Positions 30,360 to 50,091 of a DNA stretch of 53,391 nt are shown here, piece by piece. A program made the position numbers and the translations under genes. The DNA lies in the NCBI GenBank assembly GCA_013202585.1, contig JABMPQ010000038.1, forward strand, positions 1 to 53,391, in the 5' to 3' direction. The notes under the pieces are model-generated. The model saw only the letters and a list, made by a program, of their open reading frames with translations, was not told the DNA's origin and did no database searches. This stretch comes from Parcubacteria group bacterium (lineage in GTDB: Bacteria; Patescibacteriota; JABMPQ01). How positions within the stretch are numbered: position 1 is the first letter of the stretch; every line of letters begins with the position of its first letter.

Positions 30360-30388
30360 AAAAAATCCCCCATTAATTAACAGGGGAC
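30360..30388 (-). terminator. rho-independent terminator closing the T4SS-like operon
   Basis: Minus strand: gtcccc-tgttaattaat-ggggat followed by ttttt, located 25-50 nt after the stop of ORF 30413..31603. Confidence 0.6.
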
Positions 30389-30412
30389 AAATCAAAGGCT
30401 ATTTCTAGACGC

Positions 30413-31603
30413 CTATTCCCAAGCCACCAAATCGACCGAATATAAATTCAAATCAAGGAAATTGATAAAATAGAGTTTGGTTTCGTCTGCGCTAAGAAAC
30501 ATCTCCTTGACGCCAATGTCAGGATTCTCAGCAACCACACTAACCAGCTGCTCATCGTCACCACTGGCTAAGTCTAACCGCCAGATACTTTCCAAAGTCA
30601 TATAATTAAGATTGCCCTCGCTTTCTTCCAAATCAACTAGTTCGCCATAGGTGTAATAAATTGACTTATCCTCTGATCCCCATAGCGCCTGCTCTATGTA
30701 GGCATTCCCCAAATTGATGTCTTGACGATTGTCACCATTGTTATCAATTATAAAAAGCTGCGGCTGACTGTCGTCGCCGTAAGTCTCGCAAAGTAATTTT
30801 TGACCAGTGGGAGAAATCAAAACGGCTGTTATGCCGCTAATTACCTGCTTGACTTTCTGTTCGCTGAAATCGTAACGGTAGAGGGCTCTAGCTTCGTTGT
30901 CTTCATAAAAATAGTATAAGTTATTGTCGGCATAGCCTACAAACTCCACCTCGGCCAACTCCGACGCTGAATCTAAAGTCACCAAATTCTCCCAATCAGA
31001 GCCATTGGCGTTGGCTCGCGAAATATAGTTTGTTTCTAGGTCTTCATCGAAATAATGGTAAGCAATCTTATTGTTGTCTAGCCAGGTAATATCAACATAT
31101 TTTTCACTCAGAATTAACGACTCTCGGGTATTGAAATCAAGCAATATTTTATTATGCGGAGCCAGCCGACTAAAAATAGCTTTTTGTTGCTCTGATTCTG
31201 TTGTTTCCTCTTCGCCCTTGCCATCATAAACAACAGCTGCTCGACCATCCAGTGACCAACGAACATCCAAAATATCAGTAAGCTCTTGGAAAGGCAGTAG
31301 AGATGTTCTCTTGCCATCGATCAAATCGAATTGATACAAATCGTTTGTATCCAGAGATTGATAGTAAAATGCTTGCTCGGCGGGAATAAACTTAGTTTGA
31401 GTGACAGCTTCATTTATTTCCCGCACAATACTAATCGATTCACTAGCCACCAGACCCTCTATTTTCGTTTGTTCTTCGACATTTGCCATCTTAATCGCTT
31501 GACGGGGCAGCCACCAATAATTAATTATTAAAAACGCTGTGAAAATAATCACGTTAGCAACAACGATAGCGATAAATAATTTTTTCTTGGTAGTTGACTC
31601 CAT
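30413..31603 (-). CDS. N-terminally anchored beta-propeller protein (TolB/PD40-like repeats), hypothetical
   Basis: N-terminal TM (LFIAIVVANVIIFTAFLIINYWW), then repeated strands of the type LYxxDLxxGxxxxL (DLYQFDLIDGKRTSL, ALYRYDFSEQKVKQV, LFIIDNNGDNRQDI, NLYSVDL). Confidence 0.65.
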   Translation of the reverse strand: MESTTKKKLFIAIVVANVIIFTAFLIINYWWLPRQAIKMANVEEQTKIEGLVASESISIVREINEAVTQTKFIPAEQAFYYQSLDTNDLYQFDLIDGKRTSLLPFQELTDILDVRWSLDGRAAVVYDGKGEEETTESEQQKAIFSRLAPHNKILLDFNTRESLILSEKYVDITWLDNNKIAYHYFDEDLETNYISRANANGSDWENLVTLDSASELAEVEFVGYADNNLYYFYEDNEARALYRYDFSEQKVKQVISGITAVLISPTGQKLLCETYGDDSQPQLFIIDNNGDNRQDINLGNAYIEQALWGSEDKSIYYTYGELVDLEESEGNLNYMTLESIWRLDLASGDDEQLVSVVAENPDIGVKEMFLSADETKLYFINFLDLNLYSVDLVAWE

Positions 31604-31606
31604 AGT

Positions 31607-33502
31607 TTATTTCATTTTAGGGGTCTCAGTTTTGCCGCCCGATTCCTCGCAATATTTCCGTTGAAATTTAGCTGCCTTGTATATATATTTAATTGATCCT
31701 GAATGACACCAAGATGGTTTAGTAGTAGAGGAAGTGCAATTTTTCGCGCCAGAGTTATAGGCTCCAGCTGCCACTGATAAATGATTGCCACAACTTTTTA
31801 GCGTCCTTTTGAGAAAATAAATACCCATATCAACGGCGTCTTCAATATTATTATCAAACCACTTCTTGCATACTGTTGGATACTTTTCACAGACAGAGCG
31901 GCCCGGTTTGATCGTGCAACAGTTCGTATTAATCGTAGACCTTTTGTAGCTACCACAATAGGTTTTTGCTGTGTCGGGATTATATTTTCCAGAAAACTTA
32001 AGTGGCTCTTTTGTACAGATAGCGGGAACAGCCTTGCCGGAAGGTGGCTTCCAAACTCTAAAAATATAAGACGCCGTACTCGGTTGAAATTGCATAATAC
32101 CATAAGCACCCGTTACCGATTCAACGTTATAGTCTTTTCCTAGGCCAGTCTCCACCAGCATAATGGCCTTTACGTAAGTAGAATCCAGTCCTTGTCGATT
32201 AGCGGCAGCAATGATTGCCCCGTCCCACTTGTGCTTTGGCACTAACTCCTTATCACACTTCTTAATATCCGGAACTGGCACTGGACAAGCACCCACTGTC
32301 TGAAAACCGGCCGTACAACACCATTTGTCGTTCAAACCCAAAACATCATCATATTTCCCATTGATACAAGAAGTTCCACTACCACACTTAGCTTCTTTGC
32401 TTTCGCAATCGGACTGACTAGAATATGATTCAAGATAATCACAGACATTAATGGGAGTACTATCCGATCCGCCGCCAGTCACCATCTTGAGCACAGGAAT
32501 TTCAATTTTACACTCCAGCAAATACGGATTCAACACCATAAACCCAACATACGCCGTCATAGCTATAAATAAGCCAGTTAAGGCGCCACCGATCAAGTCC
32601 TTGGCCTTAGTCAGTTTGGCCGAATCACCAGCTGACGCTAGCCACACCACACCACCCAAAATGATAACTAGCATGGCTAACCCACCAGCAATTTTAATGG
32701 CAAAATCAAATATTTTCTTCCAGTAATCGCAAACATCTTTAACTTCACCAAAAAAGCCGGAAGTAAAATTAGTTGGGACTGATTCAGGAGTACCGAAAGT
32801 AACTGAATCACCAGCGTCTTTAGCACTAATCACCGGACAAGCGTCAGCCGGATGAGGGGTACTTTTTGTACCTGCTGGTAAGATATCAACAGCTGACTTG
32901 ACCGCTTTGGCGATAATACCATAGCCCGTACCGGTAAGATGTAAACCATCTTTACCAGTATTGGCTGCATACCCTGGCTTTTTCGGATCTTCGAGGATAG
33001 AGTAGGCGTCTACAACTTTACTGGCTCCGACACTACCCAATTTGCTATTTACATCTTTAGTTTTTTGTTTGATTTTGTCAGTGGATTTAGAATTCCCGCC
33101 CGAAGGAGAAACATTAACCACAATGACATTACCAGCCCCGGCACTCTTGGCCTTACTAACCATGCTTTTGACACTGCTGACAATGTTATCAGTGCCGACA
33201 CTACTATAAATATCATTAATTCCTGCCCAGATAACCACAGTATGAAATTCGCCGCCGCCACACTTTAAAAACCCATCAAATTTACCATTCAAATTTTTTG
33301 CCTGCCACCCACCATAGACCTGAGCAGTATAGGAATTACTCTTGTCGCTACTTCTCAACACTGGGCTATATCCCACCGACAAAGAATCACCTACCAATAA
33401 AACCTTTTTACTAGCTGTATCCGCCGGACTAGCAAAAGCCAGTAGCCCCAAAGCCACTGCGGTGAAAACAACAAATTTAAAATATTTTTTGGGAGTAAAC
33501 AT
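31607..33502 (-). CDS. multidomain exported protein: SGNH/GDSL hydrolase + VirB2/TrbC-like two-TM pilin module + Cys-rich region + lytic transglycosylase (SLT, VirB1-like)
   Basis: SGNH blocks LLVGDSLSVGY, GINDIY, DGLHLT. Pilin-like hairpin IAGGLAMLVIILGGVVWLASAGDSAKLTKAKDLIGGALTGLFIAMTAYVGFMVLNPYLLE. SLT motif MLVETG...GAYGIMQFQPSTA. Start set to MFTPKK (33502). Confidence 0.75.
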   Translation of the reverse strand: MFTPKKYFKFVVFTAVALGLLAFASPADTASKKVLLVGDSLSVGYSPVLRSSDKSNSYTAQVYGGWQAKNLNGKFDGFLKCGGGEFHTVVIWAGINDIYSSVGTDNIVSSVKSMVSKAKSAGAGNVIVVNVSPSGGNSKSTDKIKQKTKDVNSKLGSVGASKVVDAYSILEDPKKPGYAANTGKDGLHLTGTGYGIIAKAVKSAVDILPAGTKSTPHPADACPVISAKDAGDSVTFGTPESVPTNFTSGFFGEVKDVCDYWKKIFDFAIKIAGGLAMLVIILGGVVWLASAGDSAKLTKAKDLIGGALTGLFIAMTAYVGFMVLNPYLLECKIEIPVLKMVTGGGSDSTPINVCDYLESYSSQSDCESKEAKCGSGTSCINGKYDDVLGLNDKWCCTAGFQTVGACPVPVPDIKKCDKELVPKHKWDGAIIAAANRQGLDSTYVKAIMLVETGLGKDYNVESVTGAYGIMQFQPSTASYIFRVWKPPSGKAVPAICTKEPLKFSGKYNPDTAKTYCGSYKRSTINTNCCTIKPGRSVCEKYPTVCKKWFDNNIEDAVDMGIYFLKRTLKSCGNHLSVAAGAYNSGAKNCTSSTTKPSWCHSGSIKYIYKAAKFQRKYCEESGGKTETPKMK

Positions 33503-33589
33503 AGTAATCGCTAAACAAGGCGACCTAAGGAGGCTGTTACCAGACACCTCAAGCCGCCTTGCAGGATAAACTTATTATCTATTGGCTAA

Positions 33590-34909
33590 CTATTCCTTCT
33601 CCTCAATCATCCCCTGAGGAATATTCAAGGCGTATGTTTTATTATCGATACGATTTTTGAAATAGAATATCTTGCCATCACTGGAAACAGAACCTTTGTC
33701 ACTGACATCAACATCAAAAGTATCGCCGAAATAATCAGAAGCAGCTATTAGATCTATGGCCAAGGTTTCGGTGTCAATTTTATAAAAGGCATCAGTGGAA
33801 ATAAAATTCTCTTCGCGATAATCATTAGGCATAACCATATTGTTTGGCCAAAAATCTGGTACCCCACAGTAAACTGTTTTATTATCTTTAGCCCAAGCGC
33901 ATTTACTCACCAAGGTGTCAATTTCCAAATAACGCGGTGCGCTTAGACCGATTCTGTCCATGATATACAGGCCCAATTTGCGTGGGTTCTTCACATCTGA
34001 CTGGTTGAATATAACTTTGCTTTTGTCTGGCGATCGTCCATTCTTAGAATTAGCACCATACTGTTCACCTACCACAGTTCGATACGAGTCATCATCAGTC
34101 CTGACTATTGTTTGAATATTTCTTTCTTCGTAACCAGTAGCTTTTTTAGGGTCAACTACAATAGCTACTTCTTTTTCCCCAATCCAGTCTAGTTTTATAT
34201 CAGATCGGGAATAATGATAAAGTGATTGATAATTGCCGGTATCATAAGGATCAGCGACGGAAATATTGGAAATATCATTCTCCTCATCTTTGTAAATATA
34301 AGCAATCTGGCTTTGGTCAGGGGAAAGAGTGACGGACTGAAATTTCTTATCGTATTCAACAGTTTCTTGAGTTTGGAGGTCAAAAATAGCATATTCTTTG
34401 TCTTGACCGTCATTGTCTGAGAAAGCGATTACGGCCTTATCCTTATTAGGAGACCATTCGAGTTCGTAAACATTTTGAAAATTGGCAGAAGTGATCGCTT
34501 CCTGGTTGTTGCCATCGAGATCAGACATATAAAGTTCGCCCTTAGCCGGATCATAGTAGTAAAGATTATTACCATCGGGGGATAGAGTGGTGGACATGGC
34601 ATCATCCTCGATAACAGCTCTGACCGTAGCCTCGTCAATTTCGATGGGCTCTATTTCCTCACCTTCCTCGAGGGCTAACCGTCGGTCTTCTTCGATCTTG
34701 GCAATTTTTTCTTCCAAGGTCGTCCCCTTTTCTACCTCTTCCTCAGTCAACTCGAGACGCACTTTCTCTTCGGAAGTAACTTTGGCTTCTTCCGGAATCT
34801 CGTCAGCCGTTGGCTTCTTAATTAGTGAAGTATAAACAAACCAGCCAGCCACCGCTAAGACTACGACCGCGATTGAGGCAATGATAATGATTTTTGTTTT
34901 ATTAGTCAT
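33590..34909 (-). CDS. N-terminally anchored beta-propeller protein (PD40-like repeats), paralogous in architecture to 30413..31603
   Basis: TM (IIIIASIAVVVLAVAGWFVY), an acidic coiled linker, then repeats such as LSPDGNNLYYYDPAKGELYMSDLDGNNQEAIT, WSPNKDKAVIAF and LSPDQSQIAYIY. Confidence 0.7.
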   Translation of the reverse strand: MTNKTKIIIIASIAVVVLAVAGWFVYTSLIKKPTADEIPEEAKVTSEEKVRLELTEEEVEKGTTLEEKIAKIEEDRRLALEEGEEIEPIEIDEATVRAVIEDDAMSTTLSPDGNNLYYYDPAKGELYMSDLDGNNQEAITSANFQNVYELEWSPNKDKAVIAFSDNDGQDKEYAIFDLQTQETVEYDKKFQSVTLSPDQSQIAYIYKDEENDISNISVADPYDTGNYQSLYHYSRSDIKLDWIGEKEVAIVVDPKKATGYEERNIQTIVRTDDDSYRTVVGEQYGANSKNGRSPDKSKVIFNQSDVKNPRKLGLYIMDRIGLSAPRYLEIDTLVSKCAWAKDNKTVYCGVPDFWPNNMVMPNDYREENFISTDAFYKIDTETLAIDLIAASDYFGDTFDVDVSDKGSVSSDGKIFYFKNRIDNKTYALNIPQGMIEEKE

Positions 34910-34953
34910 GTTTTTTTTATTTGCGTGGTAAGGAGACGTTTATTACTAAGTTT

Positions 34954-35727
34954 CTATATTTCTTCGCAAGTTGATATATTAACGCCACCGAAACCGGCAA
35001 CCCTGTCTACTATATTAATAAGGGTAAAGCCAAACACGCCTGCTGACTTCTTACCTACATCTTTGCACTTGGTGCCTGGCGGACATTTTTGGGGGAAACT
35101 AATGCCACCATACCCTGTCTTTGTGTTACAGGCGTTACTAGTGCTTGAGTTCTGCCAGCCTGAACCATAAGCAGCTATGCCACACACATCGCCTTCTTTG
35201 GCATAGCAATACCCCTTAATACATTGGGTCTTTATAGATTCTTTACGTTTCTCATCCTTGCCCGCAGTACATTCATAAATGTAAAGATCAAAACCTTTGC
35301 ACTCACTCGCACTGGAACATTTTTTGGCATTATCACCCCACTTATCATCTGCTTCCGACGTCGCTTGTTGCATATCCGGCACTTTAATATTAAGCTCAAC
35401 TAATCGAGGATCCAAGGTTCGCAGGATAACGTACGAGCCCATCACTAGAACCAGACCAATCAGCGCTCCGGCAAACATCTCCTTGGCCTTAGTCACATGC
35501 TCTTCATTGCCAGAAGAACGCATATAATTTACTCCGGCCAACACAAGCGCACCCATCGCCACTGCTCCGACAATAGACGATCCAAATATGTAAAATGTTT
35601 TTACATACTGAGTAACATCGCTACTTTCACCAAAAAATCCAGCTGCTCCAAACACGCGCGCTGGAATTAACAACAACAGCCCCAAAAGCATCCCAGCCAA
35701 TTTGTAAAAATGTCGAAACATAGTCAC
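34954..35727 (-). CDS. VirB2/TrbC-like T4SS pilin module fused to a C-terminal Cys-rich ectodomain
   Basis: Signal peptide, then the two-TM hairpin IVGAVAMGALVLAGVNYMRSSGNEEHVTKAKEMFAGALIGLVLVMGSYVILRTLDPRLVE. It shares the pattern TKAK(E/D)..GAL.GL ... L(D/N)P.L.E with the module in ORF 31607..33502. The C-terminal 130 aa have 12 Cys. Confidence 0.65.
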   Translation of the reverse strand: MTMFRHFYKLAGMLLGLLLLIPARVFGAAGFFGESSDVTQYVKTFYIFGSSIVGAVAMGALVLAGVNYMRSSGNEEHVTKAKEMFAGALIGLVLVMGSYVILRTLDPRLVELNIKVPDMQQATSEADDKWGDNAKKCSSASECKGFDLYIYECTAGKDEKRKESIKTQCIKGYCYAKEGDVCGIAAYGSGWQNSSTSNACNTKTGYGGISFPQKCPPGTKCKDVGKKSAGVFGFTLINIVDRVAGFGGVNISTCEEI

Positions 35728-35730
35728 TAA

Positions 35731-38700
35731 TTAATCTCTACCTCGACTTCCCACCACACCAGAAGCGAAAACTAACACCAAAGCAGCAATACTTAAAGTA
35801 ATAAATACGTTAAAGACATTGCGTACACTATCGGGAACAAAGCTTTCAATAAAGCTCTTAGCTCCCGACACTCCGCCAGCTGTGCTATCCTCTGTCACCT
35901 TTATTGTTACAGTTGTTTCGCTGCCCTCTAGCTTTTGTCCCTTATCATCCAGGCTATCAATTTGCACTTTTATCACTTCGGATGTTTGTTTCTTGTCACC
36001 CGCGGTAAACTCCATGATGCCAATCCGGTTAGTCGTAGTTGAGGTATCCACCTTTTCACCGTTCCGGTACCAAGTATAAACAAATTTTTGTTTGTTGACT
36101 GGCAGAAAATACTGGGCGGTAGCCTTTACTTCCACCTTCGTCCCCCGCTTGGCGCTATAAGTGACGGTGCCATCTTTTTGAGTCGGCCCTTTAGAGAATC
36201 CTTTGGCTGGTTTTAATTCAGCGTAAGCAGCTAATACTTTAATACCTTCTCGTTTACGAGCAACTAGCTTATTACTCCCATCGTAAACTTTAACTTCAAC
36301 ATAATGACTGTCCTTCCCGCGTGGATCGGAAGGGCTAGTACCTTTGTCGTTGACTGAGGCAACCGCACCAGCAGTTGGTTCTACTTGAATTGATTTAAAA
36401 TCTTTACCTTTGCCACTTTTGTCTTTCTGTTCCACACCATCAACTGACCAACGATAAGTTAAGTTATCAGCAAACCTTTTCTGCTTAACTTCCTTGCTAT
36501 CGTTGAGAGACGTTTTAGCTCCCGTCTCCACCCCACAAGCACCTTCATCATAACCATCAAGCTCGGCAGTATACTTTACCTTATCGTACTGACGGACACC
36601 TCCTTTATCGCTAGTATTTACGTCTTTCTTAGATTTATCATCGGCAGGATCACATTTGCCGAGTTTTTGGGGATTATCATTACAGACAACTTCTTTCATA
36701 AAACTCAGATCCATCAAAATTGGGATCTCCGCTGTAGCCATCGTAGTCTGCGCTGTTGTCGGATCGGTGACTTCCAGCATCACTTTAGCCCCCACACAAG
36801 GCTGACTTACTCCTTGGCTGGCGGTAAACTCCAGAGAACTTTTACCAAACCCAGATTGCTTGCCAAGCGCCTCGGCCATTGCAAAGTAGGTTGGGTTACA
36901 AGGACAAGCCTCACTGGAATACTGACTGCCAGTCGCGCTTGGTACTGGATAATCATTAAGATACCACTGATAGAAGAGAGAGTCAGGATCAACGTTTTCT
37001 AGGTTACCAACTGCTGCTTTAACTAATACTTTATTATCAGCAATGGTAACATTGCTCGGCGTAACGGAAAGCATTACTTGCAGTGACAGCCCGCCGCCTT
37101 CTTTCATTAGAGTTTTCGAATCCGCCCGAACAAAATTAACTTCGCCCTTATAAAGAGATCGAGTGCTTTTACCATAAGAACGAACTACTACGGAATAATC
37201 CTCGCCCGTTTTAATTTTATTGAGTTTCAGACTAACTGTGTTCTGCTCCATGCCATAGAAATCAGCCGCATCTGAAACGCCATCGTTGTCAGTATCAGCT
37301 ATCGTGGGATCAGTGCCAGCCACAAATTCAAAGTAATTACTGCCATCACCGCCCACTTTATTTTTAGAACGTTCCACACCTGGTCCAATCCCTAAAGTTT
37401 TCATATCTATGAAGGTGGTTCTAGACAACTGCTGATAATACACCGAGAAGTCGATAGTATCATCATCCCAATCGTCCCCCGCCCGCACCGAATCCAAGAA
37501 ATCTCTTAATTCTTGTGGGTGGAGGGTACCGTCAGTAGTATTACAGCAAGGAGGGAAATAAACTTCTGGTTCCGATTCATCCTCATCACTCTCACCCCTG
37601 TCAATTATCTTGCCAGCCAACTCACCAAAATACTTCATTTCCCACAGATCCGGCATACCATCATCATCCCTATCTTTGTATCCTACTGTCCCAGTTGCTT
37701 CCACCATTTTACCTTCTTTCGGATCATTAGCTTCAGTGTCGTCAAGTTTGGTAAAGACACGCGATAGGTTTATTCTACTGCCACGACTCCCTTTATTTAT
37801 TCCATCTCTGTTGCCCTGCCAATCTTCTTCCTTGCTAGCCCATTTACCTCTATATATCAGCAAAAGAGCCTGACCAAAGGCCTGCAGGTTGTCATGGTCG
37901 CAGGGCTCGCCAGCGCCACTATAGGAATACTGTGTTATATTGAACGAATCTTCGTAATCCTTCACACAAGCATCATACGAATAATTCTGTGGTATACGCG
38001 GAGGGTTGCCCCCAAAATTGCCCTGCCAGTATTTTACAAACTCTCCGGCATCATAAGTTACTTGAGGGAAACTCTTGTATCTCACTTTTACTTTATTTAC
38101 TCCATTCTCTTTTTTTCTTTTATTCCAGAGAACGTCTATACTTTCGGAAGAAGAAGCTATCTTGCCTATCTCTTCATAGGAAAAGGACTCATAAATAACA
38201 TATAGATCCTGATCAGTCGGGCAGCTAGCCGCTATTTTATTATTAGCCTTACTCCACTCGACCGCTTCGTATCCCAAATTGGCCATCTTTTTTAGATAAG
38301 TGCTAGTGTAGCTCTTATCTAGACAACGATACGAACCAACACTATCAGTAGTAAAAGCAGTTTTTTCTTTACCTAGAGGGTCAGGCAAATTGTCATCCTT
38401 CTCGGCCATTTGGTAATTAGAGCCCCGGGTAGGCATTCTATCAGCTATTATGCGAGGGCTGCTGAATGAAATGTTGTTCACACCGATCATCGCCGCAATT
38501 CCCTCTTGAACCAACATGGTATAATACTGATCATGCGAATAAACAAAACCATACTTATCAAAACGACTACCGTATGTATCCGTCACCATCTGACTTCTAA
38601 TTAGGCCAGAATCATGCCAACCCTGCGAACCTATCGGCCAGGGCGGGGATTGACAAAGGCCCTCGCCACCATAAAGCCGTCCCCATTGGTTGGTTATCTT

Positions 38701-39162
38701 GGGAACATATTTAGCGTTAAATACTTTCTTTTGCTTACGAAAACTCTTGCCTTTGCTATCTTTCTCAATTGTTTCTACATAAACCTCCTCGACATCTTTA
38801 CTGTTTTTCTTCCTAACTATTTCCGTCCCATCGGGATACTCTATACCCTTCCAATCGACTACTGCCATCGTAATTTTATCAGATGACCCAGCATAGAAAG
38901 TATTAAGCGGTTTGCCGTCAATACACCAATTATCAAAAACACCACTACCTAAGAAATTTTCGTGCTCAGCCATCATAGAAATTTTGGCACCGGGGTGAAC
39001 GGTTTTGGGTATCGTTTTTATTTTCACTGTCGGATAAGCTGGCTTTGCAACTTCATCAGCTGCCTGGGTAATACCAAACACGGCCATTGTCCCGACAGCC
39101 AATCCGATAGCTAAACAGCTAGCCAACACTACATATTTGTATTTTTTCAAGAAATCTCGCAT
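35731..39162 (-). CDS. 1143-aa secreted surface protein with a C-terminal membrane anchor (adhesin-like), function unknown
   Basis: N-terminal signal/TM, C-terminal TM (VFNVFITLSIAALVLVFASGVVG). Internal acidic Ca-binding-like motifs (DRDDDGMPDLWEMKYFG, DTDNDGVSDAADFYG) and a beta-rich C-terminal half. Confidence 0.75.
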   Translation of the reverse strand: MRDFLKKYKYVVLASCLAIGLAVGTMAVFGITQAADEVAKPAYPTVKIKTIPKTVHPGAKISMMAEHENFLGSGVFDNWCIDGKPLNTFYAGSSDKITMAVVDWKGIEYPDGTEIVRKKNSKDVEEVYVETIEKDSKGKSFRKQKKVFNAKYVPKITNQWGRLYGGEGLCQSPPWPIGSQGWHDSGLIRSQMVTDTYGSRFDKYGFVYSHDQYYTMLVQEGIAAMIGVNNISFSSPRIIADRMPTRGSNYQMAEKDDNLPDPLGKEKTAFTTDSVGSYRCLDKSYTSTYLKKMANLGYEAVEWSKANNKIAASCPTDQDLYVIYESFSYEEIGKIASSSESIDVLWNKRKKENGVNKVKVRYKSFPQVTYDAGEFVKYWQGNFGGNPPRIPQNYSYDACVKDYEDSFNITQYSYSGAGEPCDHDNLQAFGQALLLIYRGKWASKEEDWQGNRDGINKGSRGSRINLSRVFTKLDDTEANDPKEGKMVEATGTVGYKDRDDDGMPDLWEMKYFGELAGKIIDRGESDEDESEPEVYFPPCCNTTDGTLHPQELRDFLDSVRAGDDWDDDTIDFSVYYQQLSRTTFIDMKTLGIGPGVERSKNKVGGDGSNYFEFVAGTDPTIADTDNDGVSDAADFYGMEQNTVSLKLNKIKTGEDYSVVVRSYGKSTRSLYKGEVNFVRADSKTLMKEGGGLSLQVMLSVTPSNVTIADNKVLVKAAVGNLENVDPDSLFYQWYLNDYPVPSATGSQYSSEACPCNPTYFAMAEALGKQSGFGKSSLEFTASQGVSQPCVGAKVMLEVTDPTTAQTTMATAEIPILMDLSFMKEVVCNDNPQKLGKCDPADDKSKKDVNTSDKGGVRQYDKVKYTAELDGYDEGACGVETGAKTSLNDSKEVKQKRFADNLTYRWSVDGVEQKDKSGKGKDFKSIQVEPTAGAVASVNDKGTSPSDPRGKDSHYVEVKVYDGSNKLVARKREGIKVLAAYAELKPAKGFSKGPTQKDGTVTYSAKRGTKVEVKATAQYFLPVNKQKFVYTWYRNGEKVDTSTTTNRIGIMEFTAGDKKQTSEVIKVQIDSLDDKGQKLEGSETTVTIKVTEDSTAGGVSGAKSFIESFVPDSVRNVFNVFITLSIAALVLVFASGVVGSRGRD

Positions 39163-42647: not shown

Positions 42648-42649
42648 AA

Positions 42650-43438
42650 TTAACCAGTATCTATATTAAGTCTCTCTAATTCAGCTAGAACTTCTGTCCC
42701 CGCCAAATCTGGATTGTAATTAGCGTAAAATAATTCTACCGTCTCTTGCGTATCTAACTTAGCAGCTCGAATGCCCATTCCTCGTAATCCTCCTACTACC
42801 TGAGTAACCCGTTGGTTTAATTCTTGAATGGCTTTATCATAATTGGTTATTTCCATTTTGACTTCCTTGGCCGGAGCTACCATCTGCTTAGCCCGTTCTA
42901 CTACTGACATTCCTCCAATTTTAGGTGCTCCCATATAAGGAACCACTACATAATAGTGATTAGTGGTGATATTGGACATCTCTACTAGTTGCTTGATATA
43001 TTCTCGGTATTCAGCTATCTGCATCCGCAACAGTTCGTTCTCTTGCATTTTTTCCGATTCACCTAGCTTGGTTAGATAAGCTTTGATGTTCAAGATTCGT
43101 GACTGCACGATGATTTGGATGGGGAACTCTAGAGAGTTAAGAAAATCCTGATAGCCAAAAACCATTGATTTCTGCTCATCTTCTGACATCAGGGCGAAAT
43201 TCACCGAGGAAGCCATGACAATTGAACGATAACTACCATCGTTCAATTCTACTACTCCATCTTTTATCCCTTTAATTTTTAAATATTTCTGGGTGCTCAC
43301 TCCCGCTTTACTGGCAGAGCCACTGGAACTGCTTTGACCGGGCAAAAGCTGCGTCAGGGAAGAAAAAAATGACTTTTTCTTGGCTGGCGGTTTTTTGCTT
43401 TTCTCAGCTGGCTTCGGTTGTGTTGGTTGATCAGGCAT
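42650..43438 (-). CDS. VirB4 N-terminal-domain-like protein without an ATPase domain (hypothetical T4SS accessory protein)
   Basis: IKDGVVELNDGSYRSIVMASSVNFALMSEDEQKSMVFGYQDFLNSLEFPIQIIVQSR resembles the N-terminal region of Gram-positive VirB4 homologs; this is pattern recall, not a search. No Walker motifs. The stop is 2 nt from the VirB4 start. Confidence 0.55.
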   Translation of the reverse strand: MPDQPTQPKPAEKSKKPPAKKKSFFSSLTQLLPGQSSSSGSASKAGVSTQKYLKIKGIKDGVVELNDGSYRSIVMASSVNFALMSEDEQKSMVFGYQDFLNSLEFPIQIIVQSRILNIKAYLTKLGESEKMQENELLRMQIAEYREYIKQLVEMSNITTNHYYVVVPYMGAPKIGGMSVVERAKQMVAPAKEVKMEITNYDKAIQELNQRVTQVVGGLRGMGIRAAKLDTQETVELFYANYNPDLAGTEVLAELERLNIDTG

Positions 43439-43490: not shown

Positions 43491-43910
43491 TTACGCTCTG
43501 TCTAACGTGTTGGAAATATCCTGCAATTTGCTCTTCACTAATCGTCTACCTCCTGGTAAAACCATTGTCTCTATCTCCTTTTGAACTGTGACTTTTTTTT
43601 CTTTGGAAAGGGTTTTGATTTTATCGAGGGCTGGTTCCCGAAACCAAACTCGCAAGCGCGGGTTGGTGTGGAAATGAATAAAGGAAACTAGAAAAATCTG
43701 AAAAGGTCGGCCGTTAATTTTGACAAAGGAGAAAGTAACTACTATCACCACCACTATCAGAGCCAGAATAACAAACAGGCTCAGATCAGCTAGAGACCAA
43801 GCAATCAGGAGGGTTACTCCCCCGGCCACCATATATAAAAACTGGCGCACTGTCAGCGGGCCAATCACCTTATCCTCAACTTCAATGAATTGGGGGACAG
43901 CAAATTGCAT
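43491..43910 (-). CDS. PrgI-family (VirB3-like) two-TM T4SS protein
   Basis: MQFAVPQFIEVEDKVIGPLTVRQFLYMVAGG followed by two TM helices, which is the characteristic PrgI family signature. ATG 43910 is preferred over the GTG 43940 extension. Confidence 0.7.
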   Translation of the reverse strand: MQFAVPQFIEVEDKVIGPLTVRQFLYMVAGGVTLLIAWSLADLSLFVILALIVVVIVVTFSFVKINGRPFQIFLVSFIHFHTNPRLRVWFREPALDKIKTLSKEKKVTVQKEIETMVLPGGRRLVKSKLQDISNTLDRA

Positions 43911-43928
43911 GGGAGGGGTATTAGGTTG

Positions 43929-43967
43929 CCCGCCCGCCACGGCTTCGCCGTAGGCGAGTCGGGCGGG
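43929..43967 (-). promoter_or_regulatory. very GC-rich nested hairpin between ORF 43974..45191 and the PrgI-like gene
   Basis: cccgcccg (43929..43936) / cgggcggg (43960..43967) enclosing tcgcc-gta-ggcga (43945..43957). Confidence 0.4.
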
Positions 43968-43973: not shown

Positions 43974-45191
43974 TTAAAATATCCTACTAATTTCCACGAC
44001 CGCTTTGAATTCGGCTTCGGTTAAATAGGGTTGGTTATTTTGTTGACATTCGGCTGCAACTTCCCGGATCGGTTTTTTCGTTTTCATACTAGCCTCGCCC
44101 ATTGCGATATACAGCCTATAGAGCGGAGATTGTTGCCAGTTATTTTTGGCCTGGCTTTTTTCTAAAGGGGAAACGCCAATGAGTTTGATAATTTGTCGCT
44201 TGATCTGCTCAGCCGCCTGATGGGGATCGGGAGATAGTCCCTGCAAATATCCCACTGACAAATTAGCTATGCTAGCAACTGAGTTTATAGTAAACTTTTC
44301 CGGCGCTGGTGAGGCTGGCTTTTTTACCACCTGATCGCCTTTAGTGTCTTTGAGATCAACTACACTGGGTTGGGGTCGTCCGGTTGACACTGGCTGCTTT
44401 CTAGCCGCGCCAGTTGGTTCGCTGGCAGGCGGCTTGGCGGCTTTAGATTTTATAGCTGCCTCCGGCCGAGCTGGGCTGGATTCTAGCCCAACAAACGGGG
44501 CAAATATTTCTAACCCCCAATTATCAAGCGCGCCCACCTCCCAAGAAGATATTTTTAGTAGATCATAGAAATATAGTGTGTCGTGCAAAAGATTTTTCTC
44601 TTCTTCATTCAACCCCTGGCAACTGGGACTCTGAGCAATATATCGGTTTCGCTCTATACTTTTATGGAAACCAGCTCCTAAGAAATTATCATAGTTCGCG
44701 ATCCAGTTTCTGACCTGAGAAGGTTTTTGTTCTCCTTCGGATCTAACAGTAATTTGCTTATCACCAATCTGCTCCCTATTTTCCTTAAGGCTGGCAACAA
44801 TTTTTTTCTTGTAATCGTCACGTACTTCTATTGGAATGCTCATGAGCTTTGTCCTAACCCGCTCAAAGATATCTCTTTCCTTATTGCCCAAAAACTCAAC
44901 GAAGTGACTGCTGATAAAATCCAATACTTCCTGATCAACCAAGGCGGCCAGAGCCACGAATTGAAATTGCACCAACACTTGGTCATATTTCTTAGAAAGA
45001 TCTGGGTCGCTAGCTTTGATGTTAAGTTCGGACAACTTTTTTTGCAGCAATCGAACCATATCATAGGCGTCATCTATGGTATTGTCCCTAAGAAAATCGC
45101 GATACAACTTCTCCAGCTGTGGCAGGGTATCCTTATCACCAACTCTGGTGATATCTATATTATTTTCTTTTAATGTGTCTTCCAACATCAA
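43974..45191 (-). CDS. soluble hypothetical protein with a central Pro/Lys-rich linker
   Basis: 405 aa with no TM segment. Operon position is between the VirB6-like and PrgI-like genes. I recognise no motif. Confidence 0.6.
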   Translation of the reverse strand: MMLEDTLKENNIDITRVGDKDTLPQLEKLYRDFLRDNTIDDAYDMVRLLQKKLSELNIKASDPDLSKKYDQVLVQFQFVALAALVDQEVLDFISSHFVEFLGNKERDIFERVRTKLMSIPIEVRDDYKKKIVASLKENREQIGDKQITVRSEGEQKPSQVRNWIANYDNFLGAGFHKSIERNRYIAQSPSCQGLNEEEKNLLHDTLYFYDLLKISSWEVGALDNWGLEIFAPFVGLESSPARPEAAIKSKAAKPPASEPTGAARKQPVSTGRPQPSVVDLKDTKGDQVVKKPASPAPEKFTINSVASIANLSVGYLQGLSPDPHQAAEQIKRQIIKLIGVSPLEKSQAKNNWQQSPLYRLYIAMGEASMKTKKPIREVAAECQQNNQPYLTEAEFKAVVEISRIF

Positions 45192-45232: not shown

Positions 45233-47716
45233 CTACGGTGTAGCACCGGCAGCAAAGCCGGCAGCCATATTCGTAACATGATCTCCAGCCCATTCAATAA
45301 CATTCCTACCAATGCCCCATTTGCCATCTGTCGGAGTCGGTGGAACCACAGCACCAGTATGATCAGTGACCTTTCCAGTGCCTAGCCTTTCCATTTCGCA
45401 AGCCTTGCCGTACATAACTGCCATACGCTCCACATGACTATTATTACTTTCCGTCTGAGTAGCAACCTTTCTGCTTTTCTCCTGCTCCTCTTTGATTAAT
45501 CCTTGTCTCTTCTTTCCTTTACTGCCTTTTATAGCTTTTCCTAAATCTTCTAATTCTCTAGTTGATTTCGCTAGAGCATCTGCCAACTTTTTTACAAAAG
45601 CCGGTTTTATTTGTTCAACTGCTCTCTTTTTTATTGTATCTAAATTCCGCTCGCCTTTTGAATTTATGGCCATATAGGCTTTCAACGGATCACCTCGACC
45701 ATATTCACCCACTCGAGCCGCTTTTTCTCTATCTTCATGCTCAAGCAAATACCAGCCAGCTTGGTGAACATCTTTGAGCTTGCCAGCCGATTCTCTAACA
45801 ATAGCGTTACTATGCATGTCACCCATATAGGCCCGATTACCCATTTTGGCTTTTTTATCTTCGACAATCTCTTCTTGTTCCGCATCCGTCGTATATCTCC
45901 ATTTGCCCTTGTCATTGGTAACCATGCCTGCCGTTCCGAAATGTCCAGCCGCCAAGGTAATCTCTTGTAAATCAGCTACTGTCTGACAAGCCAAAGAACC
46001 TTCTCCTAATTCCAGCTGAAGAGCTTTTTTTAGTAATTGAGGATCAAATTCGGGTTTGCTATCCTTTGTTACTAAATCAGTCCCGTCCTCTTTTTTTATT
46101 CCCATTTTCATGAAAGCTTCTCTATGCTTGTCAAAAAATGCCGGCAGACTTAACAAGTCATTAAGATTATTGGTACCCGCTAATTTACGCAAGTGAGCTC
46201 CTTTTTCTATTTCATTGGCTGCCCCCATATACCCATCTACCAGAGCGGGACTGGACTCAGTGCCAATCTCATTCTCTTTCTCTACCTCTAAGCTTCTTCT
46301 CGCCCTTCTAGCATAATTGGTTTTTTCGTGTCCCAGGCTCATCACATTATTTAGCATATCATGCATCTGACCGCCCGGTTGCGTGTAGGCATCGCTTTCT
46401 AATCTAGCCCTTCTCGTCCGCCAAGCTTCTGGTATCATAGTTGCTGTAGCCGCACCACGGGCAGCCAGTCCAGCTCCTTGAGCAAGAAGATGTAGAGGAA
46501 GGGTAGAAACCGCCCCCAACGCCTTTCCTACTATCCCTTTACCCATCAACCCTTTATTCAATGCGCTCACGCCCTGGGCCATACGTCCCTTGCCCGCTCG
46601 CAAGGCTGTTCTCCGCGCAAAATTACCGCCCAACATCGCCGCTCCTAAACCAACCTTGGTCGCCAGACCCATTCCTCGCCTCGCCAATCCCATCGTCATC
46701 CCAGCTGCCATCGGTGAAAGCGCCTTGGCCATCAGAATCGCCAGATACAAGAAAGTAATCATCACCGCCATCCGGTAAAAACCGTCGGCGGTTAGTAGGC
46801 TGATATTGCCCCGCAACTCTCCCGTCGTTTTCACTTTCATTAAAATACCCTTGCTAGTTGTATCCTCAGTAATGTGATAGGCGACCATACAAGACAAATA
46901 AACCAGAAAACCAGCTACTGGCCCATAAAAGACATACTTAAAAAACTCGTCCCACCACCGCTTAGCGTATTGCTGGGTAGCTGGCAAAATATTAAGAACA
47001 AAGGCGGCTGGTGATAATACCACTAGTACCATCAATACAACATTCCTCATTATAATCAAAGTCGACAGCAAACTAAAAGCCATCATTATCAAAAACATAA
47101 CGAAAATTGTGGCTAAGATAGCAATACTAGCCTCCGTTACTACGTTACTTCCAGGCTCTAATGAACTCCAAGCTGAGCCCGCTATCTTGTGTGGCATCGT
47201 GTTAAAAAGAGCCAAAGAAAACGTGTCCGAATAGTTATAGCCCTTAAAATTAATAAACGTCATCATCAGCACATTGGAAAAATCAATAAAAACCCCCGCG
47301 ATAGTCTTACTAAAATTCACCAACAGAGCAGCATAAATTAACTTCGGCAGCAGTGCTTTATATTGATAAGCCTCGATACGCAGAATAGTGGCAAAAGCAA
47401 TTACCAACAGAGATATAACAAAGAACATATTGAGTACATCGCGAGTGATTCCCCAACCAGCAATAACCACCGGATCATTTATAATATCCGGCGCATTGTG
47501 ATAAACGTGATCAAATAATTTACCAGACAGAACAAAAAAGAAAGTCTCGATTTCTAAAATAAAAGCGAAAATATAGCCAAATAATAAGAAAGTATAATTT
47601 TTAAGTGTCGTCCAGCCATTAGCAAAGGACACTCTAGGTAACAAAGTACCAAACACCACTAGAGCGTAGAATGCGATTTGAAAAAAGATTTTTTTGTTCT
47701 TTGTTTTATTGGCCAC
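45233..47716 (-). CDS. VirB6/TrbL-like polytopic membrane protein with a hydrophilic C-terminal extension of about 450 aa
   Basis: Signal-like N-terminus, then at least 7 hydrophobic helices over about 370 aa, then a Gly/Ala-rich segment and a long charged domain. GTG start. Assigned from topology and operon context. Confidence 0.55.
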   Translation of the reverse strand: MANKTKNKKIFFQIAFYALVVFGTLLPRVSFANGWTTLKNYTFLLFGYIFAFILEIETFFFVLSGKLFDHVYHNAPDIINDPVVIAGWGITRDVLNMFFVISLLVIAFATILRIEAYQYKALLPKLIYAALLVNFSKTIAGVFIDFSNVLMMTFINFKGYNYSDTFSLALFNTMPHKIAGSAWSSLEPGSNVVTEASIAILATIFVMFLIMMAFSLLSTLIIMRNVVLMVLVVLSPAAFVLNILPATQQYAKRWWDEFFKYVFYGPVAGFLVYLSCMVAYHITEDTTSKGILMKVKTTGELRGNISLLTADGFYRMAVMITFLYLAILMAKALSPMAAGMTMGLARRGMGLATKVGLGAAMLGGNFARRTALRAGKGRMAQGVSALNKGLMGKGIVGKALGAVSTLPLHLLAQGAGLAARGAATATMIPEAWRTRRARLESDAYTQPGGQMHDMLNNVMSLGHEKTNYARRARRSLEVEKENEIGTESSPALVDGYMGAANEIEKGAHLRKLAGTNNLNDLLSLPAFFDKHREAFMKMGIKKEDGTDLVTKDSKPEFDPQLLKKALQLELGEGSLACQTVADLQEITLAAGHFGTAGMVTNDKGKWRYTTDAEQEEIVEDKKAKMGNRAYMGDMHSNAIVRESAGKLKDVHQAGWYLLEHEDREKAARVGEYGRGDPLKAYMAINSKGERNLDTIKKRAVEQIKPAFVKKLADALAKSTRELEDLGKAIKGSKGKKRQGLIKEEQEKSRKVATQTESNNSHVERMAVMYGKACEMERLGTGKVTDHTGAVVPPTPTDGKWGIGRNVIEWAGDHVTNMAAGFAAGATP

Positions 47717-47758
47717 TAAATTTGCTAAATTCTAACTGCAAATAACTAGACAGTTTTA

Positions 47759-48853
47759 TTATTTCTTTTCCACCGCTTTGGTTTTCGTCAAATCGGGAGG
47801 AGAAGTCGTACCAGTTGGAGTTACCACGTCAGAAGGAAATTCAATTAATCTATTATCCCCCGTCTTCGTATAAGTAGGAATAATAGCAGTGCTAGAATCA
47901 TCACCATCATCAAGCAAAAATTCTGCTAACCATTTCTTTAAAGGGTCAAGGGCATAACTTTCGATGGCTGTCCCCAACGCCATTTTTGACAAGTTCATTA
48001 CATCTAAGGCTATCTGACTTCTCAAAGTTTCACCAAACTCATCACCAGCTGCACCATGATTTTTGATGATCGCAGCGGCTAATTGACCTTCCACGTTAAT
48101 TTTACGACAGTGATCAGGACGGAACATGGGGTCAACCATGCCGTCATCATCTAAATCATACCAAGAGAGCGTACGACCCCAAGCCTTAGCCTGAGCGCTA
48201 TTAACAGAACAATCTCTAGCTGTAAACAAGCCCTTGCCATTAAACAGTTCGGTTTTAGCTGAATCTTTTTTCTCTTCGCCCAAATCCATAATACTCAACG
48301 CTGCCTCCAGTGAAAGGTTAATATCATTATTTGAGCCAGACACCGTAGTAGTCAACATATTGGGAAGTTCCTTGCGTATCGCGTCCATTTTATCATCAAG
48401 ACTTAAGACGGCAAATTGAGCGATCTTACTCTGATCGAAAGTACACTTCGGATCATGACCTTCCGCGACAAATTTAGTTAAAGCCAACTTCAAATTCCAA
48501 TTAATATTTACGCAAAGCGAATGAGCCGTCAGTCTTTTAAAGACCACGTTGGCTGCCTGAAATAGCACCTTCTCCGTAAACCACTGAGCCAACTGCTCGG
48601 AGGTCATCAAAAAATCAGATCGGGAGGCCGCCGCCATCATAACGTCCCTGATCAAAGGATAAAGGGCTGCTTTCCATACCACCAGTAAAATATTCTCCAA
48701 CAGCGTGGTTAGATCTTGCATGATGGTTACTGGCCAGACAGCTTTAGCCGGCTTAGGAAAAGCAAACACTCCTAGACCAGAAAAGACGATCACAACACAA
48801 ACAACCAGAAAAGTGAGAAGTATTTTGGTTCTAAAGCTATGAGCGGAAAACAT
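47759..48853 (-). CDS. secreted hypothetical protein
   Basis: Signal peptide (…GVFAFPKPAKA|VW). 364 aa with a few Cys and no recognisable motif. Confidence 0.6.
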   Translation of the reverse strand: MFSAHSFRTKILLTFLVVCVVIVFSGLGVFAFPKPAKAVWPVTIMQDLTTLLENILLVVWKAALYPLIRDVMMAAASRSDFLMTSEQLAQWFTEKVLFQAANVVFKRLTAHSLCVNINWNLKLALTKFVAEGHDPKCTFDQSKIAQFAVLSLDDKMDAIRKELPNMLTTTVSGSNNDINLSLEAALSIMDLGEEKKDSAKTELFNGKGLFTARDCSVNSAQAKAWGRTLSWYDLDDDGMVDPMFRPDHCRKINVEGQLAAAIIKNHGAAGDEFGETLRSQIALDVMNLSKMALGTAIESYALDPLKKWLAEFLLDDGDDSSTAIIPTYTKTGDNRLIEFPSDVVTPTGTTSPPDLTKTKAVEKK

Positions 48854-48862
48854 TGTTTTTGA

Positions 48863-50029
48863 TTATTTTGTTTTTAAATTTTTCTCTTCCGCTATCTGAT
48901 CCAGCTCGGCTAAATAACTATCAACAATTTGTACCTTGAGTAGATATGCTAGTTCGGCATAACCATTCATGATCGCAATAGCGCCGTCTTGGTTAACGGT
49001 AGTTGAACCACCATTATTATTTATTTCTTCTGCTAAGTATTCGGAGCGTCGCAAGGAAGCGACAATTTTTTTATGCAAACCGATGATTCTTTCTTCTCGC
49101 GGTACTTCCAAGGCCTCAACTTGATCCAGAGAGTTAGAAATTGCGACAGTGAATTGGTACATTAGTGAACTACCGACACCACTTGTCGAGAGCATATCAT
49201 AGCTACTAGCCTGCTCTTGGAAATTAAAGCTCTGATACAAAATATTGCCCATAGTGGTGATATAGTCCCGCACTTGCTCATCACTAGTGCCAGCCGCAAT
49301 TTTAATCTCACTCTCTGCAATCTCTGCTAACTGTACCTGGCCAGCCACCGTTTCTACATTGTCTTGCGACTGGATATAATTGGTCATGTCATCTTGCAAA
49401 GATCCAACGTCCTGAGCAGAAAAAGCATCTTCTAAATAGCTAACTTGCTGTCTATCTGTCTGGCTTACCTCTAAGACATTATCTTCGCTAGCCCCATCAC
49501 TATCACTGTCGTTATCGTTGTCCAAGTTTGTTTCTGCTGAACGGCCATCTTGGTCGGCATTAGCCACCGCGTTGATCGCCACGTAATCAGATAAATCAGC
49601 TTGCAACGGATCATGGCCAGAAGCAATTTCTTCGCCGTCACCATAGCCATCAAAATCAGAATCGGCCAAGCGGGGATCAGTGCCGTATCTATCCTCGTCC
49701 TTGCCAACTAGTCCATCTTGATCAAGATCAACATCATCATCGGATTGGATTTGCAAGGGGTTAAAACCATTCTTTACCTCTTCACCATCAAGATGACTAT
49801 CACCATCGGAATCAGCGTTATAAATGTTGGTGCCCAGTTCTCTCTCTTGGTCATCTGATAATCCATCATTATCGGAATCGATTCCCTCAGTCATAATAGT
49901 AGCAACTTTTTTACCATCCTTATCTCCCTGTCCAAAATCAATTTTCTTAGCAATCACAAAACCACTGATTGATATAATCGAAATCACTACCACAACAATT
50001 ACCGACAACTTAAAACGTTTCGATTGCAT
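48863..50029 (-). CDS. membrane-anchored protein with thrombospondin type 3-like Ca-binding repeats and a helical C-terminal domain
   Basis: N-terminal TM. Four DxDxDGxxDxxE-type repeats (DSDNDGLSDDQE, DSDGDSHLDGEE, DLDQDGLVGKDED, DSDFDGYGDGEE), each followed by G.(N/D)P. Confidence 0.7.
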   Translation of the reverse strand: MQSKRFKLSVIVVVVISIISISGFVIAKKIDFGQGDKDGKKVATIMTEGIDSDNDGLSDDQERELGTNIYNADSDGDSHLDGEEVKNGFNPLQIQSDDDVDLDQDGLVGKDEDRYGTDPRLADSDFDGYGDGEEIASGHDPLQADLSDYVAINAVANADQDGRSAETNLDNDNDSDSDGASEDNVLEVSQTDRQQVSYLEDAFSAQDVGSLQDDMTNYIQSQDNVETVAGQVQLAEIAESEIKIAAGTSDEQVRDYITTMGNILYQSFNFQEQASSYDMLSTSGVGSSLMYQFTVAISNSLDQVEALEVPREERIIGLHKKIVASLRRSEYLAEEINNNGGSTTVNQDGAIAIMNGYAELAYLLKVQIVDSYLAELDQIAEEKNLKTK

Positions 50030-50062
50030 TGTTTATTTTCTGGCTACTAATGAATCAGACTT

Positions 50063-50091
50063 ATTATAGTACAAATACTAAATAGTGACAA
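50063..50091 (-). promoter_or_regulatory. near-consensus sigma70 promoter TTGTCA-17-TATAAT for the T4SS-like operon
   Basis: Minus strand: ttgtca (50086..50091), a 17-nt spacer, tataat (50063..50068). It lies about 33 nt upstream of the ATG at 50029. Confidence 0.5.

Follow-up and report, generated by a model that had tools for sequence, protein, structure and literature searches.

What is a type IV secretion system (T4SS) for when the genes that handle transferred DNA do not lie beside it? This question is raised by a stretch of 53,391 nucleotides from a Parcubacteria group bacterium (assembly GCA_013202585.1, contig JABMPQ010000038.1, positions 1 to 53,391 of the forward strand; hereafter the window), in which 14 tightly packed open reading frames (ORFs) of 149-1143 aa each, designated here O1 to O14 from the promoter end, occupy positions 30413-50029 of the minus strand. 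An earlier note, made from the letters without database searches, had described the same 14 ORFs as a T4SS-like operon and had read them as an apparatus for host contact, secretion or pilus formation rather than for conjugation. We find that the locus is a chromosomal, relaxase-free T4SS of the Patescibacteria, in agreement with this already published class in every feature that could be tested. It probably represents a vertically inherited system, in an ABY1-like lineage, derived from the conjugation machinery of monoderm bacteria (mating-pair formation class FATA, MPF-FATA) and working as a contact-dependent conduit between an epibiont and its host, not in conjugation.

The motor and its chromosomal setting

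The ATPase of the system is O7 (40683..42647, minus strand, as all operon genes; 654 aa, or 652 aa with the start that gene callers place two codons later). It matches the NCBIfam model for VirB4-like conjugal transfer ATPases of the CD1110 family (1.7e-108, 363.9 bits, cutoff 325) and the Pfam families P-loop_TraG (4e-26) and CagE_TrbE_VirB (7e-8), and carries Walker A (ATSGAGKS) and Walker B (MIVVDE) motifs. O7 is 55-95% identical to the VirB4 of 203 Patescibacteria genome contigs (GTDB species genomes), and 27-36% identical to plasmid VirB4 proteins, the best of which, among the matches listed, are all from Bacillota or Actinomycetota. This distribution strongly implies that O7 belongs to a Patescibacteria VirB4 clade nested in MPF-FATA, and both the CD1110-type model and the monoderm plasmid relatives bear out the Gram-positive-like character that had been noticed in the locus. 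The weak match of O7 to the CedB model (4e-11, 42 bits, cutoff 700) reflects generic VirB4 similarity.

The PrgI-like gene had been placed directly before virB4, but a further gene intervenes, O6 (42650..43438, 262 aa), separated by 2 nt from the start codon of O7. In the CD1110 VirB4 model O6 aligns with positions 11-118 (1.1e-9) and in the VirB4 model Mbov_0397 with positions 104-279 (1.5e-9), and O7 takes the rest of both (166-733 and 279-892, respectively). Because the two proteins cover complementary parts of the same models, O6 is identified by these alignments as a TrsD-like, split-off N-terminal piece of the long VirB4 proteins of monoderms. Its match to the NCBIfam TrsD model itself (1.9e-4) falls below the cutoff, and a TraC-like Pfam match is precomputed for it. 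As hhalign detected no similarity between the O6 and O7 family profiles (E = 0.36), the link between TrsD and the VirB4 N-terminal domain depends on the NCBIfam models.

As the note had stated, no member of the relaxase, type IV coupling protein (T4CP, VirD4), VirB11 or integrase families was matched by Pfam or NCBIfam among the window ORFs of at least 140 aa (53 kb), and profile searches for VirB7, VirB9, VirB10 and CedA gave no matches either. The features that define a conjugative T4SS or an integrative and conjugative element (ICE), namely a linked MOB relaxase, T4CP and oriT together with an integrase and att sites, were not found in the window, where an Rfam scan returned two tRNAs only. 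Six further window ORFs of 160-503 aa (26389-27384, 27381-28892, 22871-23392, 3733-4215, 4537-5106 and 52731-53351) matched no Pfam family at E<=0.01 except for a weak PP2C_2 match in 27381-28892; none of them is relaxase-, T4CP- or integrase-like, and they are typical "dark" Candidate Phyla Radiation (CPR) proteins.

The surroundings of the operon consist of housekeeping genes. Upstream, outside the machine, lie ksgA (rRNA adenine dimethylase, 50163..51035, minus strand; Pfam RrnaAD 4e-55) and ubiA; downstream are radA (28951..30294, minus strand; Pfam AAA_25, KaiC, ChlI and Lon_C), a PP2C-like gene, uvrA, rpoB/rpoC, ruvA, femAB, tsaD, glycolytic genes and tRNAs. Of these flanks, about 30 kb lie downstream of the operon and 3.3 kb upstream. 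The window corresponds in essence to an entire JGI contig of 53,376 bp; a second assembly prolongs the right end to a uvrD-type helicase gene, and an attempt to extend the left end gave no longer contig. The earlier note had named a MOB relaxase and T4CP immediately outside the window, flanked by att sites, as the finding that would make the locus an ordinary ICE. Within the window neither was matched, a repeat search found no direct or att-like repeats bounding the operon, and the GC content is even. Several genes for DNA repair and recombination surround the T4SS (ruvA, 14540-15118; uvrA, 23554-26385; radA; and the uvrD-type helicase, 55-2220 in L081), echoing the published T4SS loci of ABY1 that lie near recombination and competence genes.

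From the 203 VirB4 relatives 80 loci were kept (numbered with the prefix L), whose titles are mostly Patescibacteria or CPR. The closest VirB4 proteins come from metagenome-assembled genomes of the Parcubacteria/Patescibacteria group (95, 89 and 83% identity), and among named lineages Kerfeld-, Falkow- and Komeilibacteria come nearest (61-65%), all of class ABY1 (Table S1 of Quinonero-Coronel et al. 2025, Microb Genom, PMC12102498). The synteny comparison proposed in the note recovered the full cassette, from ksgA through O1...O14 to radA, in L001, L002, L033, L003-L005 and L007. The ksgA...radA slot can be followed in relatives to a VirB4 identity of 70%, and adjacency to radA to about 60%. 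Housekeeping flanks, the lack of flanking repeats and the recurrence of the cassette in relatives together argue for a chromosomal, vertically inherited system. Overall, ksgA adjoins the T4SS in 35 loci and radA in 12, and radA stays beside the virB4 module where accessory genes are missing, moved or rearranged (L019, L023, L072 and nine other loci). The side on which ksgA lies varies: ABY1-like loci have it upstream, and in the Moranbacteria-like L038-L064 it is found about 5 kb downstream.

Conservation differs strongly between parts of the operon. Homologues of O5, O6 and O7 are present in 71-80 of the 80 loci (71 for O5, 76 for O6), those of O3 and O4 in 29-35, and those of O11, O12 and O13 in 24-29. 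With respect to L002, the core proteins O5, O6 and O7 are 76-89% identical, the products of the housekeeping neighbours 69-74%, and the surface proteins O9, O10, O11 and O13 only 34-47%, as would be expected if a conserved motor were combined with host-facing parts that evolve rapidly. As the cassette is conserved across relatives, the accessory genes, which had been taken for exported ORFans, are better described from these comparisons as lineage-specific families.

Channel, pilin modules and surface proteins

Three further proteins can be assigned to a membrane channel with different degrees of confidence. O5 (43491..43940, 149 aa) is a PrgI/VirB3-like protein with two transmembrane (TM) segments, which matches Pfam PrgI (1.5e-11, 45 bits, cutoff 27) and TcpE (1.9e-4). 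O3 (45233..47716, 827 aa) is an extended polytopic protein in which the TM scan places about seven TM segments before a hydrophilic C-terminal region of about 480 aa. TrbL (PF04610) is matched by 16/32 members of the O3 family (best 1e-8), TrbL_4 by two and TrbL_3 by one, whereas O3 itself has a weak precomputed match to TrbL_3 and a weak one to CD3337/EF1877. The VirB6/TrbL-like assignment made earlier is thus supported at family level by these profile matches.

The third, O8 (39946..40668), had been overlooked as a T4SS part. This predicted lipoprotein has a conserved AFGC lipobox and a T/E-rich linker followed by a C-terminal domain, for which the AlphaFold2 (AF2) model has an NTF2-like fold (predicted local distance difference test, pLDDT, >90). 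In Foldseek searches this domain found VirB8-type proteins with E-values from 4e-4 to 6e-3 (TcpC 3ub1, 4e-4; PrgL 7aed, 1.3e-3; CagV 6iqt; TraH 5aiw), while at the sequence level neither Pfam (to E<=10) nor a PDB profile search gave a family match. O8 lies directly 3' of virB4 in 14 loci. On the basis of its modelled fold, O8 is a plausible, though not proven, equivalent of VirB8.

Between the VirB6- and PrgI-like genes lies O4 (43974..45191, 405 aa), encoding a cytoplasmic, all-helical protein of two domains joined by a Pro-rich linker, without TM segments. Its homologues occupy the same position in 29/80 loci, and its family comprises at least 1309 representative clusters (50% identity) at E<=1e-3, and 318 at E<=1e-10; a word-indexed homologue search had retrieved few relatives for O4 (n = 6), as for O13 (n = 4). 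No Pfam domain was found among 58 members of the family, and the AF2 model of O4 (pLDDT 67, from a shallow alignment) had no PDB fold match (best Foldseek E = 0.69). We regard O4 as a candidate core component of the Patescibacteria T4SS. Pfam scans at E<=10 of O3, O6, O2, O4, O8 and O9 yielded nothing useful, and PDB sequence-profile searches with the O3, O8 and O4 families and with O10 gave only noise.

Two proteins carry VirB2-like pilin modules that share 37% identity (E = 2e-21). In O11 (34954..35727, 257 aa) the module (Pfam T4SS_pilin, PF18895, 1.1e-7, 32.3 bits, cutoff 26.6; weak NCBIfam Mbov_0395 pilin-like match, 3e-4) is followed by a Cys-rich C-terminal extension of 150 aa. In O13 (31607..33547, 646 aa) it is fused to two enzymes, in the order signal peptide, SGNH/GDSL esterase, pilin hairpin, Cys-rich linker and SLT lytic transglycosylase (Pfam SLT 4e-12; Lipase_GDSL_2 1.2e-9; T4SS_pilin, PF18895, 1.7e-6, 28.4 bits, cutoff 26.6), and all of the catalytic motifs that were checked are present (GDS at residue 53, GIND at 109, DGLH at 200, ET at 466 and GAYGIMQ at 480). 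Thus profile searches agreed with the earlier identification of a VirB4 ATPase, a PrgI-like protein, two pilins and an SLT domain. TM topology and the positive-inside rule predict both enzyme domains of O13 to be exposed on the membrane's outer face. Lytic transglycosylases require a free C6-OH on N-acetylmuramic acid, for which reason an esterase is a logical partner.

The architecture of O13 is the same in P0024 and P0025 and in L004 and L006, and fusions of this kind recur. Of 42 pilin-module proteins from VirB4 loci, 40 match T4SS_pilin, and among the 42 we found SLT (8), GDSL (5), Peptidase_M15 (2), VanY (1) and Amidase_2 (1) domains, most of the remaining proteins carrying Cys-rich extensions; one database relative has a Peptidase_C39_2 domain. 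As pilin-hydrolase fusions are absent from the main text of Quinonero-Coronel et al. 2025, the repeated fusion of pilin modules to peptidoglycan hydrolases may be a new feature.

Two other genes of the window concern the cell wall. The product of 13516-14553 is a FemAB-family peptidyltransferase (1.3e-48), whose family assignment implies an interpeptide-bridged peptidoglycan of Gram-positive type and bears on the wall that O13 would attack. Some 18 kb from the T4SS, 10845-12362 encodes a protein of 505 aa with Peptidase_M23 (7.5e-19) and FG-GAP repeats (9e-17), likely a further peptidoglycan endopeptidase that is exported and carries an integrin-like propeller.

The remaining genes encode surface and accessory proteins. 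O1 (48863..50029, 388 aa) is anchored at its N terminus and has four TSP3-type Ca-binding repeats (Pfam TSP3_bac 1.3e-4; D-x-D-x-DG at residues 51, 73, 101 and 123), with weak MtsD/CglD matches and homologues in 14 loci. O10 (35731..39162, 1143 aa) has an N-terminal signal or TM segment, two TSP3-like Ca motifs and a C-terminal TM anchor; its homologues are also found in 14 loci, being full-length in L001 (73%), L002 (43%) and L033 (30%), and it had no PDB sequence match. We consider it a candidate adhesin. O12 (33590..34909, 439 aa) and its distant paralogue O14 (30413..31603, 396 aa; BLASTP E = 1e-5) are anchored beta-propellers, O12 at its N terminus, whose family profile matches TolB structures at 1.6e-15; O12 has weak PD40/DPPIV_N matches and is present in 29 loci. 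O2 (47759..48853, 364 aa), exported or anchored by an N-terminal hydrophobic segment, has no Pfam or NCBIfam match, and its homologues are restricted to the five nearest loci. O9 (39207..39863, 218 aa), basic and with a C-terminal TM hairpin, evolves fast: no family was matched in profile scans, and homologues were found only in L001 (83%) and L002 (34%). To the parts recognised earlier, the analysis adds the TrsD-like O6, the NTF2/VirB8-like lipoprotein O8, the TolB-like propellers O12 and O14 and the large cytoplasmic family of O4.

At the nucleotide level, the layout described in the note was largely reproduced, the gaps between neighbouring ORFs being 2-82 nt instead of 2-80 nt. A sigma-70-like promoter, TTGTCA-17-TATAAT (50063..50091, minus strand, 11/12 match), precedes O1 exactly where it had been reported. 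It is singled out by its score, the highest in the region, and by its position within the 133-nt gap between ksgA and O1, and not by match-count statistics, as the total of promoter-like matches in the region is not raised (49 vs 40.7 +/- 7.2 in shuffles). A terminator-like site was looked for between ksgA and O1 and none was found, so transcription could possibly read through from ksgA into O1. At the other end, the reported terminator hairpin was recovered (30359..30388, minus strand) as a stem of 10 pairs (4 GC) spanning 30388..30365 and followed by TTTTTT, in a segment (30350-30415) that folds with -17 kcal/mol (z = -2.0). Beyond it, radA has a promoter-like site of its own (30345..30317).

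What passes through the apparatus

In the mechanism that we propose, O7 together with O6 would energise a channel in the cytoplasmic membrane made of the VirB3-, VirB6- and VirB8-like proteins (O5, O3 and O8). VirB4 would pull the pilin modules of O11 and O13 from the membrane, either to assemble a short fibre across the wall or to set the tethered enzymes free. At the contact site the esterase and SLT domains of O13 would then open the peptidoglycan, with cleavage by the transglycosylase made possible by de-O-acetylation. The Ca-binding O10 and O1 and the propellers O12 and O14 would hold or scaffold the junction between epibiont and host. A host interface is suggested by the faster divergence from L002 of the surface parts compared to core and neighbours, and wall cutting by the recurrence of hydrolase domains among the 42 pilin-module proteins.

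As for the traffic, we tentatively favour the uptake of host macromolecules such as DNA, nucleotides or other building blocks, while granting that the case falls short of even odds. The preference is based on the lack of a coupling protein in the operon, on the observation that in Southlakia epibionticum the T4CP is dispensable and the T4SS essential, on the inability of the epibiont to synthesise nucleotides, lipids and amino acids, and on the persistence of radA adjacency in rearranged loci along with precedents for import without a T4CP. The radA argument is weak, since ksgA persists as a neighbour just as well and no functional link is plausible for it.

Several observations weigh against the conduit or its details. 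The absence of a T4CP applies to the window, so one may be encoded elsewhere in the genome; indeed, 2,918 Patescibacteria genomes are reported to contain 5,713 VirD4-type homologues, most of them encoded far away from virB4 (PMC12102498). The adjacency of radA may be mere conserved synteny. O3 itself did not reach the Pfam threshold when scanned locally, and in Foldseek unrelated NTF2 proteins score as well against O8 as those of VirB8 type, the fold being a common one. SGNH hydrolases are functionally broad, and the O-acetyl esterase role of O13 is suggested by its fusion to SLT; polymerisation of pilin modules that bear domains of 150-300 aa is likewise putative. Finally, co-transcription of the 14 ORFs is deduced from their spacing, and a promoter-like site with an 11/12 match (TTGAAA-18-TATAAT, 39728..39699, minus strand) lies inside O9. 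This internal site is about 540 nt upstream of O10 and may start the surface-protein half of the operon.

Somewhat less probable than uptake, yet still a serious contender, is export of effectors, in which the apparatus would inject toxins, hydrolases or host-manipulating proteins into or onto the host bacterium. Such a role has been speculated upon in print for Saccharibacteria and is the commonest one for non-conjugative T4SSs; the pilin-tethered hydrolases could themselves be the cargo, and exporters without a T4CP exist (Ptl and the Brucella VirB system). However, profile scans revealed no coupling protein and no recognisable effector/immunity pair in the operon, the distant T4CP homologue of S. 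epibionticum is non-essential where its T4SS is essential, and the main need of an epibiont is to acquire building blocks.

An organelle for adhesion or envelope remodelling alone, in which fibre, Ca-binding proteins and propellers form an attachment or wall-remodelling structure without a substrate, would account for the fact that half of the operon encodes surface proteins and that these evolve fastest, and VirB4 suffices for pilus biogenesis in other systems. We nevertheless consider it improbable, as VirB6, VirB3 and VirB8-like proteins form the translocation channel of characterised T4SSs and are strongly conserved here, and as Patescibacteria already adhere and move by type IV pili. An ordinary ICE with its relaxase, T4CP and att sites outside the window can be dismissed almost entirely, for although the model whose cutoff O7 exceeds is one for conjugal-transfer ATPases, and relaxases do occur in a few Patescibacteria (109 in 103 genomes; PMC12102498), the locus has housekeeping flanks, a uvrD-type helicase past the right end, uniform GC and, within the window, neither integrase nor flanking repeats, and occupies an identical ksgA...radA slot across genomes with VirB4 identities down to 70%. 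The non-conjugative reading of the earlier note has thus survived testing and matches what has been published on Patescibacteria T4SSs.

Within the conduit between epibiont and host, the pilin fusions lead us to a more speculative proposal, which we regard as unlikely. The VirB2-like hairpin could be a carrier module that hands wall enzymes to the T4SS, so that the fibre, or pilins dislocated by VirB4, would act as an enzymatic drill through the (O-acetylated) peptidoglycan of the host. The cargo would be an SGNH esterase and SLT in this locus, and an amidase, an M15/VanY peptidase or a C39-like peptidase in relatives, and the opening in the wall would become the junction by which host material reaches the epibiont. 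If true, VirB2-type pilins would take on a new role, and hydrolases a new delivery route.

No T4SS other than that of the Patescibacteria is known to be essential to the bacterium that carries it, and a 2024 perspective calls the role of the Patescibacteria system "completely unknown". The present locus leaves the overall picture unchanged and adds refinements and one testable idea. It offers a fully syntenic 14-gene version from a lineage outside the Saccharibacteria with a clearer parts list, in which the split TrsD, the VirB8-like lipoprotein, the TolB-like propellers, the O4 family and the pilin-hydrolase fusions provide concrete targets for the structural and genetic study of host exploitation by ultra-small epibionts.

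Comparison with known systems

The system most informative on function is that of S. epibionticum ML1, in which transposon sequencing showed the 14-gene cluster SEML1_0006-0019, Gram-positive-like, with pilins and without relaxase and coupling protein, to be essential for epibiotic growth (Wang et al. 2023, Cell, PMC10633639), independently of comEC, which is dispensable. Related clusters in Saccharibacteria had been mentioned in the note, and the SEML1 cluster is indeed homologous, but the organism studied here is ABY1-like and not a member of the Saccharibacteria. Both loci are chromosomal, have 14 genes and lack a relaxase and T4CP in the cluster; both contain a VirB6-like protein, PrgI, a protein preceding VirB4 (about 290 aa in S. 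epibionticum) and VirB4 itself, with a protein of about 1100 aa and a peptidoglycan hydrolase downstream, an NTF2-like protein (SEML1_0012) and PF18895 pilins. O10 has the position and size of the essential SEML1_0007. On the other hand, the pilins of S. epibionticum are six short proteins encoded in tandem on the opposite strand, instead of two long pilin fusions; a lysozyme/glucosaminidase stands in place of the SGNH-pilin-SLT protein; TolB-like propellers are not among the listed parts; and the NTF2 gene lies upstream, between two VirB6-like genes, whereas O8 follows virB4. The demonstration of essentiality concerns the S. epibionticum cluster.

At the level of the phylum, the novelty of the locus could not be upheld. 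The class has been surveyed in 3,035 Patescibacteria genomes, 2,417 of which encode a VirB4 that forms a clade inside MPF-FATA, with TrsD, PrgI/VirB3, VirB6 and VirB2-like pilins near a chromosomal virB4, VirB1 and VirB8 homologues in some lineages, and rare relaxases (PMC12102498). In that survey ksgA is a frequent neighbour of virB4, and radA, recG and comF are neighbours in ABY1, so nothing categorical separates the ABY1 arrangement from the present one; the O4 family and the TolB-like propellers are not named in its main text. A 2025 FEMS review treats the Patescibacteria systems as a recognised T4SS type.

Among conjugative systems, the closest are the MPF-FATA T4SSs of pGO1/pSK41 (trsC-trsD-trsE), pCF10 (prgH-I-J-K-L) and the CD1110-type ICEs of Clostridioides difficile, which share VirB6, VirB3, TrsD and VirB4 followed by a VirB8-like protein and a hydrolase, lack VirB7, VirB9 and VirB10, and include the model family whose cutoff O7 exceeds. 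The order O5-O6-O7 is that of trsC-trsD-trsE in pGO1. The locus differs from them by having no relaxase, T4CP or oriT in the window, by its VirB2-like pilins, by its housekeeping chromosomal site and by its other surface proteins.

The uptake systems ComB of Helicobacter pylori and Ced of archaea provide a precedent for import by a VirB4-family ATPase without relaxase or coupling protein. They are of other construction, ComB being a diderm VirB2-4/6-10 system and Ced using CedA, and no specific homology to either was found beyond VirB4. Assignment of the locus to the ComB/Ced type was considered but is not supported, with VirB7, VirB9, VirB10 and CedA unmatched and CedB at 42 bits against a cutoff of 700.

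The closest VirB4 outside the CPR (36% identity to O7) is encoded on an 898-kb replicon of Pontibacillus sp. ALD_SL1 (NZ_CP062975.1, 344304-370088; L086). The genes at positions 7498-17051 of that locus encode an Mbov_0395 pilin-like protein, a second pilin module (match to O11, 6e-6), a large membrane protein of 779 aa, a small protein, a TrsD-like protein (31% identity to O6, 7e-31), VirB4 and a DD-metalloendopeptidase of 1050 aa, with flagellar genes adjoining. The annotation shows no relaxase within 12 kb, and typing classes the replicon as non-mobilizable. Pontibacillus differs in being a free-living member of the Bacillota and in having no homologues of O1, O4, O8, O10 and O12. The survey by Quinonero-Coronel et al. 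leaves the origin of the pilins in the monoderm ancestor open, and the gene content of the Pontibacillus locus hints that VirB2-like pilins were already present in the monoderm ancestor or relatives of the Patescibacteria system.

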